From: Escherichia coli
GTDB taxonomy: Bacteria; Pseudomonadota; Gammaproteobacteria; Enterobacterales; Enterobacteriaceae
Assembly: GCF_041248615.1 (NCBI RefSeq)
Contig: NZ_CP158426.1
Length of the DNA stretch: 64,000 nucleotides
Strand: one strand, 5' to 3'
Of the stretch, positions 9,408 to 43,827 are shown one piece after another. A program made the position numbers and the translations under genes. Below the pieces are notes generated by a model. It did no database searches. It saw only the letters and a program-made list of their open reading frames with translations, and was not told the origin of the DNA. How positions within the stretch are numbered: the first letter of the stretch is position 1; every line of letters starts with the position of its first letter.

Positions 9408-9429
9408 TGGTGCCGGAATCGGAATCGAA
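9408..9429. repeat. degenerate direct repeat of the pheV 3' end (putative distal att site of the island)
   Basis: TGGTGCCGGAATCGGAATCGAA here versus TGGTGCCCGGACTCGGAATCGAA at the pheV 3' end (43752-43774), same orientation. Confidence 0.55.
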
Positions 9430-9539
9430 AATTTCTTTTATCATATTGATATTAATATAATTTGTTTGGTTTGATTAAAAATGTACCCTCAATTATACCC
9501 GCAGTCCCTTTTGATATCGAAAGGGAATCACACTCGGGA

Positions 9540-10382
9540 TCAGGCTGAGAGCACAGAAGGAAAGTACCTGGCTATTATATCGTTAATTCTGTCAATCAGT
9601 TCCAGCCTTTTGAAAGTGATGTGTGCAGATCCCTTCTTAAAGTATTTAATGATGAACATCTCGTCTTCATAGCGCTCTTTACCCTGAACGGACTGGATGT
9701 GACCATCCAGACGAATAGTGATGTTTTCCCGGTTGTCGGGGATCGGTTTGCCGCTGAACAGATGTAGCATTCTTTCCAGGTCGACGAGTCGGTCAGTCTG
9801 TTGCCCGGTGATAAGATGAAACCCCCACCGGTCCCACCTCACCAGGTTGTTGACGATAATTTTACTGCCAAATTTGCAGGGGCAATTGGTTTTGTAATTC
9901 CAGCTCAGTCCCCTGAAGACGTTGATCACCCCTCGCTCAAACACCTCATCCTTATTCTGGTGTAGTTGTTCAAATGTGATCAGAATGTTCGCTTCACTGA
10001 TTTCCGGAAAATTATCGTACTCCAGTGACCGGTACCATGTATCACGGGCCTGTGCATCCATTAAGGAAAGCATCCCTGAACGTTGCATCAGGTCACGCCA
10101 GATTTCGCGATCGAGATTGCGTGTGATGGCTTTCATTGCGGTTTCCGGTTTCTCCATCAGCCAGCAGCCGCAGCGAAAATCCTGTTTCATGGCCCAGCCC
10201 GGGGCGGCTTTACCGCCAATACTTTCTGTCATTGCTGATATTTCAGCCAGTTGCCGGATAAGTGTGTCGATTTGCAGCAGTGTACTCTTTCGTACAGCCA
10301 GAATGTGGCGGATATTGGTTGAGCAGATAACGTCCGTATGCCCGGTGACCACTTCCGGACGGGAGATTGTGATGTCTGACAT
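9540..10382 (-). CDS. hypothetical protein (DUF4942-like, usually found distal to yeeW in CP4-44-type modules)
   Basis: 280-aa ORF; family assignment from memory of co-occurrence, not verified. Confidence 0.55.
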   Translation of the reverse strand: MSDITISRPEVVTGHTDVICSTNIRHILAVRKSTLLQIDTLIRQLAEISAMTESIGGKAAPGWAMKQDFRCGCWLMEKPETAMKAITRNLDREIWRDLMQRSGMLSLMDAQARDTWYRSLEYDNFPEISEANILITFEQLHQNKDEVFERGVINVFRGLSWNYKTNCPCKFGSKIIVNNLVRWDRWGFHLITGQQTDRLVDLERMLHLFSGKPIPDNRENITIRLDGHIQSVQGKERYEDEMFIIKYFKKGSAHITFKRLELIDRINDIIARYFPSVLSA

Positions 10383-10466
10383 TATCGGTTTCCCTTTTGG
10401 TTTATAAACGAAAACGCCAGCCCTGTTCAGGCTGACGTCAGTGGAATGAAGTATGGTGAGTGATAT

Positions 10467-10889
10467 TTACCGGTTCTGGTGCAGAAGCTGCAGGTGACGA
10501 AGAGTACGGACATCCTCCCGGGCCTGTTCGATACAGGGCAACAGTGCTGCCGAATCCGTTTTATCCTCATCGTTGTCAAAGATAATTCCCGATTCGCAGT
10601 CGATATTGTCCTGCAGCCACGCAATGAGGATATCCAGCGCTGTTTCAGTGGTTAATGGCATCACGCTCTGTATCACTGTATTGTCTTCCGGCAACTGATG
10701 AGGGCTGGCAGAAGTCGCCGGTGTTTCGGTAGCGTCATGTTCATCCACCACGCGGAGTGAATAACCGTTTTCAGCGACTTTGTTAATCAGTTCAGCGAGC
10801 TTAATACCATCGACGTCAACGACAATGCGCCCCATGTTCAGCGCCTGCGCATTAATGCTGTCGGCTTCCAGCGTCAGGGCCAGTTTCAT
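10467..10889 (-). CDS. yeeW: YeeW-like protein
   Basis: 140-aa ORF immediately downstream of cbtA, 4-nt overlap; matches remembered YeeW N-terminus. Confidence 0.6.
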   Translation of the reverse strand: MKLALTLEADSINAQALNMGRIVVDVDGIKLAELINKVAENGYSLRVVDEHDATETPATSASPHQLPEDNTVIQSVMPLTTETALDILIAWLQDNIDCESGIIFDNDEDKTDSAALLPCIEQAREDVRTLRHLQLLHQNR

Positions 10890-11263
10890 TGTTTCGCCTC
10901 CGGATGCTTACCCAGAGTAATGTTATTTACTGTTCGGTAATTGTCGCGGGTCATCAGGCCGGTCGCCCTGCGAGCCCGGAGGATATCGATGCTGTTTATT
11001 AACTGAGAGCGGGTACAGGCGCTGAATCCCGGCTGGTCGGTACGCACCAGCGCGTATTTTTCCACGAGAAAGTTCACCGCATCACACAGTGAAATGCCTG
11101 CCTCAATATGCTGCTCAATCACACGTTCATCAGCGAACGGTGTGTCATTCAGTGTGAGGCCGTAATGCTGGTCCAGCAGTCGGGTGAGCAGTGTATGCCA
11201 GATGGTGACGGGAGACGGGCAGCACGATGCCTCCCGTACGTGTGTGTCAGGTAATGTTTTCAT
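10886..11263 (-). CDS. cbtA: type IV toxin CbtA (YeeV family, cytoskeleton-binding toxin)
   Basis: Start trimmed to internal Met (MKTLPDTHVREAS...); about 125 aa; near-identical to remembered CbtA/YeeV. Confidence 0.85.
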   Translation of the reverse strand: MKTLPDTHVREASCCPSPVTIWHTLLTRLLDQHYGLTLNDTPFADERVIEQHIEAGISLCDAVNFLVEKYALVRTDQPGFSACTRSQLINSIDILRARRATGLMTRDNYRTVNNITLGKHPEAKQ

Positions 11264-11309
11264 CTTAAGTTCTCTGTAACTGGTAGTGCTAAAGGTGAGA
11301 TATTCGGGG

Positions 11310-42041: not shown

Positions 42042-42265
42042 GTTTCATCTCCTGAGAGTCCAGGAAATCGTCCGCATCCCCTAACGGTCAAAAATCGTGG
42101 CGTTGATACAGGGGAAATCCGTAGTTTTTGATGCCAGCCATAACGTGTTTGACTATAAAGTATTACGAAAGGACTTTAATGAGCCCCTGGAATAATTCAT
42201 TAAAGTAATTTACTTCGCTATCCTTTTCCCAGTTACTCACAAAGAAAAATATTCATAAAATAATT

Positions 42266-42284
42266 CCCGGGCTGGCAGCCCGGG
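42266..42284 (-). terminator. hairpin downstream of the integrase gene
   Basis: CCCGGGCTGGCAGCCCGGG; the minus-strand transcript would be followed by a U-rich tract. Confidence 0.45.
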
Positions 42285-42291
42285 ATGATTA

Positions 42292-43554
42292 CTATTTTAA
42301 TGGATTGTTAATCTTTGCATATTCAAACGGGCTGATACATTGTTCTCTGTTCGCACCCAGAAAATCTGCCCACCACTGTAGCATCAGTCGACGTTCTTCC
42401 AGATGTTCTGCTTTATGGATATATGCAGCACGTACACCATTACGCTCCTGATGGCTCATCTGACGTTCCACAGCATCGCGGGACCACAAACCTGATTCAA
42501 TCAATGCACTGCACGCCATCGCCCGGAATCCATGACCACAGACTTCCTGGGTTGTGTCATATCCCATCACCCTCAGGGCTTTATTTACAGTATTTTCACT
42601 GATCGGTTTACGCGGGTCATGTGCTCCCGTAAAGATCAGACCATTTTCACCAGCCCATGTCTGTAGTTCTGTCAGTATGGCTACAGCCTGTTTGCTGAGT
42701 GGCACAAGATGTGGTGTTCGCATCTTGGAGCCCCGGTGTGAGTATTTTACGCCTGGCAGAGGTTCGCGTTCGGCTGGAATAGTCCACATGGCATTGTCAA
42801 TATCAATTTCAGACCAGCGGGAATATCTGAGTTCACTGGAACGAATAAAAACCAGTAAATTCAGCATAACTGCCAGTCGGGTGACAGGCTGACCTTTATA
42901 ACCGTCAATACGCGACAGAAGTTCAGGCAGGCGTGAAAGATCCAGAGCAGGGCGATGCTGGCGTTTTACCGTGGTCAATGCACCAGCCATATCCAGAGCC
43001 GGGTTATATCTGATGATGCCAGACTGTACGGCATAACGCATTACAGCAGATATTCTTTGCTGCAGACGACTGGCGATTTCATAAATTTGTTTTGCTTCTG
43101 CAGCACGAACAGGGATAAGCAGGTCCGGGGTATTGAGTGTTGTGATATCCCGGTTGCCGATAAAGGGGAAAACGTGTGTCTCGAGGCTTTTGATTACTTT
43201 ATCGCTGTGTGATTGTGCCCATTGTTTATTACTGGCATGCCAGCGTCGTGCAATATGTTCAAAAGAGAGTTGTAAATCAGGGACTACTTTTTTAGCTCTT
43301 TTTTGTTCGCAAGGGTCAATCCCCTCTGAAATCAGTTTTCGGGCCTCATCCCGTTTTGTACGAGCTTCGGAGAGAGAAACTTCTGGATATACACCAAGTG
43401 CCAGAGTCTTCTCCTTACCCAGAATACGATAACGGAGACGCCAGTAACGGGAACCATTAGGATGAACCAGCAGGAACATGCCAGCCCCGTCAGTGAGTTT
43501 ATAAGCCTTGTCAGTGTGCTTTGCAGCCCGGATTTTTGCGTCAGTCAGTGCCAT
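42292..43554 (-). CDS. int: P4-type tyrosine integrase
   Basis: 420-aa ORF with N-terminal MALTDAKIRAAK... and C-terminal catalytic region typical of P4-family integrases; adjacent to tRNA-Phe. Confidence 0.9.
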   Translation of the reverse strand: MALTDAKIRAAKHTDKAYKLTDGAGMFLLVHPNGSRYWRLRYRILGKEKTLALGVYPEVSLSEARTKRDEARKLISEGIDPCEQKRAKKVVPDLQLSFEHIARRWHASNKQWAQSHSDKVIKSLETHVFPFIGNRDITTLNTPDLLIPVRAAEAKQIYEIASRLQQRISAVMRYAVQSGIIRYNPALDMAGALTTVKRQHRPALDLSRLPELLSRIDGYKGQPVTRLAVMLNLLVFIRSSELRYSRWSEIDIDNAMWTIPAEREPLPGVKYSHRGSKMRTPHLVPLSKQAVAILTELQTWAGENGLIFTGAHDPRKPISENTVNKALRVMGYDTTQEVCGHGFRAMACSALIESGLWSRDAVERQMSHQERNGVRAAYIHKAEHLEERRLMLQWWADFLGANREQCISPFEYAKINNPLK

Positions 43555-43751
43555 AGTTCAGCCTTCTGAATGCGTTAAAGAGGGTACAAATTCTGTCGAA
43601 CTGGGGTATACCCGCAATTATACCCACACAATGGGGTTGATGTGGGGGGAATCTGGTTGAGTTCGGTAGAATTGATTTGGAGGCAGAACGCTTAAATTGT
43701 GGCGTTCTGAAACGAAAAACGGACCTCCGTGGAGGTCCGTTGATATGAATT

Positions 43752-43827
43752 TGGTGCCCGGACTCGGAATCGAACCAAGGACACGGGGATTTTCAATCCC
43801 CTGCTCTACCGACTGAGCTATCCGGGC
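43752..43827 (-). tRNA. pheV: tRNA-Phe (pheV-type)
   Basis: Reverse complement is the 76-nt E. coli tRNA-Phe GCCCGGATAGCTCAGTCGGTAGAGCAGGGGATTGAAAATCCCCGTGTCCTTGGTTCGATTCCGAGTCCGGGCACCA. Confidence 0.95.

Follow-up and report, generated by a model that had tools for sequence, protein, structure and literature searches.

The accessory DNA beside pheV in Escherichia coli NRZ14408 is very probably a GI-pheV island that was integrated at the 3' end of this tRNA gene by a P4-type integrase and was then remodelled in place. The window analysed here is a stretch of 64,000 nucleotides and corresponds to 928001-992000 of NZ_LT599825.1. The insert is 34,344 bp long with precise bounds, because the native pheV terminator abuts the distal repeat and a genome with an empty site has the exact junction. 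It is an ordinary, IS-riddled member of the GI-pheV / PAI-V group, a kind of island already known, including the repeat beside kps. An earlier note on this DNA had proposed an island of about 34 kb between pheV and a degenerate 22-bp repeat, and that proposal stands. The following features define the ends.

43752-43827, minus strand: pheV, tRNA-Phe(GAA), the sole tRNA called by both ARAGORN and Rfam
43752-43774, minus strand: attL core, the final 23 nt of pheV (tRNA 3' end TGGTGCCCGGACTCGGAATCGAA)
43555-43751, minus strand: island-side attL arm, with a terminator hairpin at 43718-43741 and TATACCC-type repeats at 43580-43588 and 43607-43627
42292-43554, minus strand: intP4, an intact gene for a 420-aa P4-type tyrosine recombinase, 197 bp from the tRNA 3' end
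9430-9539, no strand assigned: island-side attR arm, with a tandem GTACCC/TATACCC pair at 9483-9503
9408-9429, minus strand: attR core, a degenerate 'pheV copy (the 23-nt tRNA end minus one C and with one C>A)
9361-9407 (47 bp), minus strand: native DNA from downstream of pheV, now displaced, which matches what directly follows pheV in K-12 and forms the chromosomal flank of attR
9373-9399, minus strand, within the preceding: original pheV terminator, a terminator-like hairpin

The tRNA-Phe gene is beside a P4-type integrase, as the earlier note had described. Beyond the tRNA the core genes yqgA and speC resume in synteny with K-12, also as described, and the 97% identity to K-12 reaches approximately 8 bp past the tRNA end. 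The attR copy reads TGGTGCCGGAATCGGAATCGAA, occurs once in the window and has the same orientation as the tRNA, which agrees with the near-copy reported before. When the 23-mer of the tRNA 3' end was sought at up to 5 edits in 92 kb (the window and 28 kb leftward), the only matches were 9408-9429 and the tRNA itself. Shuffled sequences gave zero attR-type matches at up to 3 mismatches. The copy adjoins the K-12 pheV terminator sequence, and positions 9361-9429 of the window match K-12 from the pheV 3' end through the terminator over 71 bp (94%). Matches to this segment across 5,426 genomes were all at pheV or at island ends. The kps-positive genome NZ_CM142663.1 has an intact, unoccupied pheV joined precisely at the 9407/9408 point. 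Comparison with island-free sequence (K-12 and NZ_CM142663.1), the check that the note had suggested, places the boundary exactly at the repeat. There is virtually no chance that the 22-bp match is accidental or part of an unrelated conserved sequence, with the boundary elsewhere. The repeat is short and imperfect, but the shuffles, the 47 bp of pheV terminator region next to it, the precise empty-site junction and the tabulation of the same imperfect 23-bp attR type for 16 reference strains (PMC11537424) already refute that reading.

The attR of the window corresponds to the published TTCGATTCCGAGTCCGG-CACCA with one further G>T on that strand. The exact 81-bp junction with this extra substitution is rare (11 of 5,426 genomes), and the same junction type is found in 885 of these genomes. 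Many unrelated strains share the 1-nt deletion. Instead of originating in this strain, it may be old or may have been spread by recombination in the flanks.

The two island-side arms share the 11-mer CAATTATACCC. The attR arm is conserved in 55989 and, at pheU, in Santai, and the attL arm is nearly identical across five reference GI-pheV islands. The GTACCC/TATACCC pair of the attR arm and the TATACCC-type repeats of the attL arm are candidate arm-type Int-binding sites. The same attL arm is present in the pheU scar of K-12. We considered whether this match reflects pheU chromosomal DNA carried to pheV, and rejected it. The shared arm is element-derived, because K-12 pheU is itself followed by the integrase remnant yjdQ.

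The kps cluster is located between the native pheV terminator and yghD, outside the repeat as the earlier note had placed it, and no further pheV-like repeat was found on the kps/yghD side (up to 5 edits, 92 kb). One could regard the entire accessory DNA from pheV to yghD, approximately 51 kb with kps counted in, as the true island and the 22-mer as an internal relic. K-12 lacks both the island and kps, its homology does not restart until yghD, which is 7.2 kb to the left of where the window begins, and kpsF is separated from the repeat by an IS110 remnant. However, this larger island is extremely unlikely and is largely refuted by the empty-site genome, since kps genomes exist in which an intact, unoccupied pheV is joined exactly at 9407/9408. 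Genomes without kps, such as 55989, have the same island end and attR directly beside yghD. In addition, the native terminator separates kps from the repeat, the kps region has no integrase and the yghD side has no repeat. The kps cluster is a separate acquisition from the pheV island.

The intP4 product has the Pfam architecture Arm-DNA-bind_3, Phage_int_M and Phage_integrase and contains the R/HxxR/Y motifs. The gene is 94.1-97.0% identical at the nucleotide level to those of the published GI-pheV reference strains 55989, CFT073, S88, Sakai and H10407, a comparison that takes one representative each of intP4.1, 4.2, 4.4 and 4.5 plus S88, with differences of 3-6%. The nearest of those tested is H10407 (intP4.2, 97.0%), which also shares the ept fragment beside int. 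Of 5,426 complete genomes, 3,331 have the integrase and tRNA at a coverage of at least 80%.

The interior of the island is composed of the following features.

9540-14260, minus strand: yee module (RefSeq annotation) with DUF4942, DUF957, a yeeW-like fragment, the toxin-antitoxin pair cbtA/cbeA, DUF987, RadC-like JAB, antirestriction, DUF932 and DUF905; collinear with K-12 CP4-44 at 83-90% nucleotide identity
14331-19764, minus strand: gene for the Ag43 (flu) autotransporter, interrupted at 16450-19029 by ISEc12 (IS21 family)
19783-20019, minus strand: homologue of the IsrC / IS102 RNA, which in CP4-44 too is found upstream of flu (RF00124 in Rfam; 70.4 bits, gathering threshold 46)
20137-21009, minus strand: yeeP/yfjP-like GTPase gene, 95% identical in nucleotides to what remains of yeeP in K-12 and 49% identical in amino acids to YfjP
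21124-25007, no strand assigned: variable cargo slot, annotated as LysR regulator, alpha/beta hydrolase and MFS transporter
27263-29340, minus strand: 202-aa hypothetical, AlpA-family HTH gene (27959-28165) and YagM-like gene (25% identity to YagM)
30376-35941, plus strand: block annotated as an Hha-like fragment, two Gp2/YagK/YfjJ-domain genes, DUF7828, a zinc-ribbon protein and a 233-aa hypothetical
31446-32759, plus strand: IS1414 insertion with astA in an alternative frame of the transposase gene
32232-32348, within the preceding: astA (EAST1) inside IS1414, the 38-codon ORF MPSTQYIRRPASSYASCIWCATACASCHGRTTKPSLAT
36135-42195, no strand assigned: IS graveyard with DUF4222 and Mu-transposase fragments, truncated ISEc38, IS3-family remnants and a phosphoethanolamine-transferase fragment
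38099-39429, in the IS graveyard: IS2-like element with a 140-bp tandem duplication of its end

This agrees with the earlier description of an entirely accessory interior, in which IS elements, toxin-antitoxin, Ag43, alpA, Gp2-like genes and astA had been listed; each is present. Apart from the tRNA and IsrC, which is also annotated in K-12, nothing reached the Rfam gathering threshold. NCBIfam yielded nothing above the curated cut-offs for the int-proximal proteins, and neither NCBIfam nor PADLOC had a match for the plus-strand block. With PADLOC, nine of the ten proteins tested were without a match, the unnamed int-proximal ones included, and the yeeP-like GTPase gave only weak LeoBC/LeoA/SspF GTPase-type matches; hence no defence system is claimed. 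Beside the plus-strand block, a 1-kb non-coding gap (29.3-30.4 kb) contains TGTAA repeats at 29671-29745 that recur every 13 bp in an iteron-like array.

The IS insertions were dated by comparison with relatives (Santai, TUM9803). ISEc12 has terminal inverted repeats; the Santai homologue lacks it, with 7 bp that align on either side. Neither TUM9803 nor Santai has IS1414, and there 9 bp align on either side. The cargo slot in Santai is filled by other genes (DUF2971, GNAT).

Islands with the GI-pheV architecture have been described by Nhu et al. (PLoS Genet 2024, PMC11537424), and PAI-V / PAI V536 is located downstream of kpsF (PMC10272209). The window island resembles them in its position at the pheV 3' end, with a precise empty site seen, the adjacent intP4 with P4 domains and at least 94% nucleotide identity, the imperfect 22-23-bp attR derived from the pheV 3' end, the CP4-44-like flu and yee modules, the mosaic of IS-separated modules, and the kpsF-pheV placement seen in kps-positive strains. 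It differs in its small cargo (LysR/hydrolase/MFS) with no pap, iuc, sat, ireA, fec or T6SS, in an integrase gene more than 1% diverged from each representative tested, in the extra C>A of attR and in the astA gene brought by IS1414.

A relative is found in Santai (E. coli O157:H16, NZ_CP007592.1), where an island at pheU has the same attR-side end and a core running from yee, flu and GTPase to AlpA, YagM, Hha, Gp2, Zn-ribbon, YfjJ and ISEc38 at 91-99.3% nucleotide identity. The plus-strand block is 99.3% identical. The Santai island differs in having a perfect 23-bp attR, and its intact ISEc38 is followed by more than 19 kb of cit/acnB/malX/enterotoxin cargo missing from the window island. 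At pheV of TUM9803 the island occupies the inner position of a tandem that also includes an SPI-7-type ICE. That ICE has ParA, DnaB-PI and ParB; by contrast, no relaxase, coupling protein or type IV secretion genes are annotated in 9408-43751 of the window, which does not fit an ICE. Nor does the island resemble a Gram-negative PICI, which is a compact element of approximately 10-15 kb in which alpA adjoins int and genes for primase/replication and packaging interference are present. The window island is 34 kb long, alpA is 14 kb from int, and no primase or packaging genes are annotated.

The interior had also been read in the earlier note as a fusion of a CP4-57-like and a CP4-44-like module. 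The CP4-44 half of this claim is well founded. From 10.4 to 20.7 kb the yeeP-to-yeeW part is collinear with CP4-44 of K-12 at 82-95% nucleotide identity, and yeeP, isrC, flu, yeeS, yeeT, cbeA, cbtA and yeeW all appear in the same order. The window island has DUF905, DUF932 and antirestriction genes where CP4-44 has yeeR, and its Ag43 gene is split. CP4-44 itself lacks both an integrase and an att pair, and its site is not a Phe tRNA gene.

The CP4-57 half holds at the family level only. CP4-57 (intA, alpA, yfjJ ... yfjP, yfjQ, yfjX, yfjY, yfjZ/ypjF) is integrated at ssrA with another att site. It shares the layout of a P4-type int at an RNA gene, an AlpA-family regulator and a YfjJ-domain protein, and its far end is also similar (GTPase, DUF932, antirestriction, RadC, toxin-antitoxin). 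The distal half of the window island has 65-72% nucleotide identity to CP4-57, and the int-proximal half has no blastn match to it. At the protein level, Int is 35% and YfjJ 23% identical, and AlpA has no BLASTP match to CP4-57 AlpA below 1e-3, with only a common Pfam domain. The island is not a close relative of CP4-57, only Pfam families being shared.

A fusion could have arisen if CP4-57-like and CP4-44-like elements had integrated in tandem at pheV and the internal att site had then been lost. Tandem accretion at pheV does exist, as in TUM9803, where the island is followed by a chimeric tRNA and then the SPI-7-type ICE. The block at 30.4-35.9 kb is on the strand opposite to the remainder, identity to the Santai island differs by segment (91% to 99.3%, with the 21.1-25.0 kb cargo slot unlike), and module-wise evolution has been described (PMC11537424). 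However, this origin is unlikely, as no internal pheV-like remnant is found at up to 5 edits and int, alpA and yfjJ of CP4-57 are without nucleotide similarity to the window island. Moreover, the island can be explained without a fusion, since Santai has the same 29-kb core (9.4-38.1 kb) as one contiguous piece at another tRNA gene, pheU. CP4-57 and CP4-6 each hold both an int-proximal YfjJ/YagK-type part and a GTPase-DUF932-antirestriction-RadC-toxin-antitoxin part, so the full architecture is normal and CP4-44 is the truncated one.

The integration and in-place remodelling favoured here would have proceeded as follows. A circular element with a P4-type tyrosine integrase would have recombined with the pheV 3' end through the 23-nt tRNA-Phe core. 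This would have rebuilt an intact tRNA gene at attL, for which the element supplied the 3' portion and a terminator hairpin (43718-43741), and displaced the original tRNA 3' end and native terminator by 34.3 kb to attR (9361-9429). The functionless attR remnant may later have gained the 1-nt deletion and the C>A. The kps cluster would have been present already, or have arrived independently, between the pheV terminator and yghD, and is not part of the element. Evolution in place would have involved module exchange and IS activity: ISEc12 split the Ag43 gene, IS1414 brought astA, and the IS2-like element truncated ISEc38 and probably deleted cargo beside int. No observation speaks against integration of this kind; the weak points lie in the activity of the island today.

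Excision of related PAI-V islands between 22-bp repeats has been reported (PMC10272209, PMC7545054). The window island has an intact int and an AlpA-family gene, whose products could still excise it, probably only rarely given the mismatched attR. Two of the 23 positions of attR do not match attL, and single att mismatches can cut island deletion by orders of magnitude (PMC11537424). The excised-junction product would read ...TTTAGAATAG followed directly by TGGTGCC(C)GGA.... The AlpA-family gene (Pfam Phage_AlpA PF05930, E=3.7e-9) is a candidate excision regulator, and its product has a weak match to the excisionase HTH model TIGR01764. It is 14 kb from int, with the IS graveyard in between. 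With no conjugation or packaging genes annotated, the island would depend on a helper for transfer. It is conceivable, but very unlikely, that the island may still excise, even with a degenerate attR and erosion by IS elements, and that the Gp2/YagK/YfjJ block with the TGTAA iteron-like array serves as a replication module, by which the excised circle would persist until mobilised by a helper element.

The exact attL and attR boundaries are now set for the pheV island of NRZ14408, which is mainly of annotation value. The island can serve as a clean positive control for the calling of islands from tRNA repeats. Its sole classical virulence-associated genes are the disrupted Ag43 gene and the IS1414-borne astA. 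The NRZ14408 isolate also features in papers on mcr-1 and darobactin.

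Gene names follow the RefSeq annotation of the E. coli NRZ14408 chromosome (NZ_LT599825.1, 928001-992000), whose sequence is identical to the window. The island ends are defined by the following features.

43752-43827, minus strand: tRNA-Phe(GAA) gene (pheV), the sole tRNA in the window by ARAGORN; Rfam concurs
42292-43554, minus strand: tyrosine recombinase gene, 420 aa (RefSeq annotation)
43555-43751: attL arm (tRNA side), with its own terminator hairpin at 43718-43741
9408-9429: 22-mer TGGTGCCGGAATCGGAATCGAA, a single occurrence in the window

A gap of 197 bp separates the integrase gene from the 3' end of the tRNA. 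The integrase has the P4-type domain architecture (Arm-DNA-bind_3 / Phage_int_M / Phage_integrase) with the R, HxxR and Y motifs all kept. The 22-mer differs from the tRNA end TGGTGCCCGGACTCGGAATCGAA by one deleted C and one C>A. No match to it was found in shuffled sequence, and a fuzzy search (up to 5 edits) of 92 kb, the window plus 28 kb leftward, returned no site beyond the tRNA and the 22-mer. It is indeed a near-copy of the tRNA 3' end, as the earlier note held.

The K-12 order is pheV, a hairpin terminator (containing AAAAACCCGCCTTGTGGGCGGGTTC), then yghD. Because window 9361-9407 is the same 47 bp as this terminator, touches the 22-mer directly and scores as a minus-strand terminator, 9361-9429 is the original pheV 3' end with its native terminator, moved away by insertion. 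The repeat is therefore not part of an unrelated sequence, a possibility that the earlier note had raised. In the kps-positive genome NZ_CM142663.1 the site is unoccupied, with kpsF, an IS110 remnant, the native terminator and intact pheV in that order; it is identical to the window left flank through 9407 and then runs directly into the tRNA. Given this exact junction and the abutting terminator, the insert measures 34,344 bp (43752 - 9408), with precise ends. On the other side the K-12 alignment from nupG through pheV (97.3%) ends about 8 bp beyond the tRNA end, and yqgA, speC, nupG, mltC, mutY and later genes follow K-12 order, so core genes do resume past pheV. K-12 and the empty-site genome place the boundary where the repeat does. 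The observation of a pheV island with its repeat is confirmed; the main interpretation also finds support, except in its fusion and CP4-57 gloss.

The capsule cluster kps was said to lie outside the repeat, and the native terminator does stand between them. The gene order left of the window is sslE, gsp, yghD, kpsMT, region 2, kpsSCUDEF, IS110 remnant and native pheV terminator, with K-12 homology picking up again at yghD. Neither a pheV-like repeat nor an integrase was found on the yghD/kps side of the island, and in 55989, which is without kps, the same island end and attR (the far end holding the displaced pheV remnant) adjoin yghD directly. For these reasons island and kps are independent pieces, and they are likewise handled as separate in the literature (PMC11537424, methods; PMC10272209). 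Region 2 (window 1-2000 and left-flank locus L004 23613-28000) has low GC (0.43) and comprises no more than two genes, both large, whose products of 1,169 aa and 329 aa are labelled hypothetical. Farther left (L004 4359-8905), sslE is annotated as frameshifted, with an IS1397/ISEc31 cluster separating it from hybG.

GI-pheV islands are defined by intP4 adjoining pheV together with an attR remnant; their common 23-bp imperfect attR is tabulated as TTCGATTCCGAGTCCGG-CACCA, and their flu and yee modules are related to CP4-44 (PMC11537424). The layout kpsF, 22-bp 'pheV, PAI, intB and pheV has already been described, with repeated excision between 22-bp repeats inferred and a circular product cited (PMC10272209); excision of the strain 536 PAIs is integrase-dependent (summarised in PMC7545054). 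The kind of element is thus already known, and the window copy is an eroded, cargo-poor member of it. Its attR is the common imperfect form with one additional change. Among 5,426 complete genomes, 11 have the exact 81-bp attR junction and 885 have the junction type. Compared with a single representative per tested allele, the int gene shows 94.1-97.0% identity, that of H10407 being closest; the ept fragment beside int is also common to both. The one-nucleotide attR deletion is common to strains with two chromosomal-flank alleles, TTTAGAATAG and TTAAGAATTAG (window 9408-9429 against loci L011-L014), and it was not observed at pheU. In intP4.1 islands, the other attR type (19 bp) has the same substitution as this extra C>A. 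The pattern could stem from mutations that arose independently, or from attR types recombining with one another.

The attL arm is nearly invariant across 55989, CFT073, S88, Sakai and H10407. As it carries its own terminator hairpin, the element provides the tRNA 3' end and terminator upon integration, and the tRNA gene stays whole. Downstream of K-12 pheU the same arm, hairpin included, is followed by yjdQ, the 3' fragment of a related integrase gene (K-12 pheU region, L008 1550-2175, against window 42134-42488 and 43619-43875), so this "empty" site bears a scar of the same family. Transfer of pheU DNA to pheV was ruled out, since the K-12 pheU arm precedes yjdQ. Both arms hold paired TATACCC/GTACCC motifs with about 11 bp spacing (43607-43627 and 9483-9503) and an exact 11-mer in common; an inverted copy of the TATACCC-type motif lies at 43580-43588. 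The motifs are kept in related islands; in another type of island, the tandem motif at equal distance is a different one. We infer that they are putative arm-type Int-binding sites. An AlpA-family HTH protein (27959-28165; PF05930, E=3.7e-9) is a candidate excision regulator. The RefSeq annotation lists no conjugation or packaging genes in the island.

Santai (O157:H16, L010 2361-27776) carries the same island core at pheU with a perfect 23-mer attR, followed by an old int remnant and cadC; the family therefore uses both Phe tRNA genes, pheV and pheU. TUM9803 (L005 19292-25341) also carries this island with its int, and next to them come a chimeric tRNA of 78 nt and then a SPI-7-type ICE encoding ParA, DnaB-PI and ParB. 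The chimeric tRNA bears a tRNA-Ser annotation, and its match to pheV is limited to about 50 nt counted from the tRNA 3' end. Here two elements have accreted in tandem at pheV, so the process does occur.

The earlier note read the interior as a fusion of CP4-57-like and CP4-44-like modules. The CP4-44-like part stands, the distal half (9.5-21 kb, with IsrC RNA) having 82-95% nucleotide identity to K-12 CP4-44 in a collinear arrangement, whereas its CP4-57 and CP4-6 counterparts are only 64-76% identical. The CP4-57-like label does not: the int-proximal genes have no nucleotide similarity to CP4-57, and at the protein level the likeness is remote (Int 35%, YfjJ 23%). Nor is a fusion needed, because Santai carries the 9.4-38.1 kb arrangement as one contiguous stretch at pheU, no internal att remnant was found in the island (fuzzy search, up to 5 edits), and CP4-57 and CP4-6 each hold both kinds of module themselves.

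ISEc12 (16450-19029) interrupts the Ag43 gene and IS1414 (31446-32759) holds a complete astA ORF (32232-32348); relatives lack both insertions. A cargo slot at 21.1-25.0 kb contains LysR, hydrolase and MFS genes, and other genes fill it in Santai. Only IS fragments occupy 36.1-42.2 kb. There ISEc38 is cut off by an IS2-like element, while in Santai it is whole and cargo genes (cit, acnB and malX) come after it, from which we infer an IS-mediated deletion. The right end of the IS2-like element is duplicated in tandem (exact 140 bp, 39290-39569), and this duplication is missing from the TUM9803 island, elsewhere 99.9% identical. Repeats of the TGTAA type, about six of them at a 13-bp period, form an iteron-like array (29671-29745) that sits near Gp2/YfjJ-domain genes, in a 1-kb AT-rich non-coding gap (29341-30375) between divergent YagM-like and Hha-like genes. 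The Hha/YmoA-like ORF (30376-30525) has only 49 codons and a TTG start, and is probably a 5'-truncated gene because it aligns only to residues 24-71 of the 72-residue Hha model.
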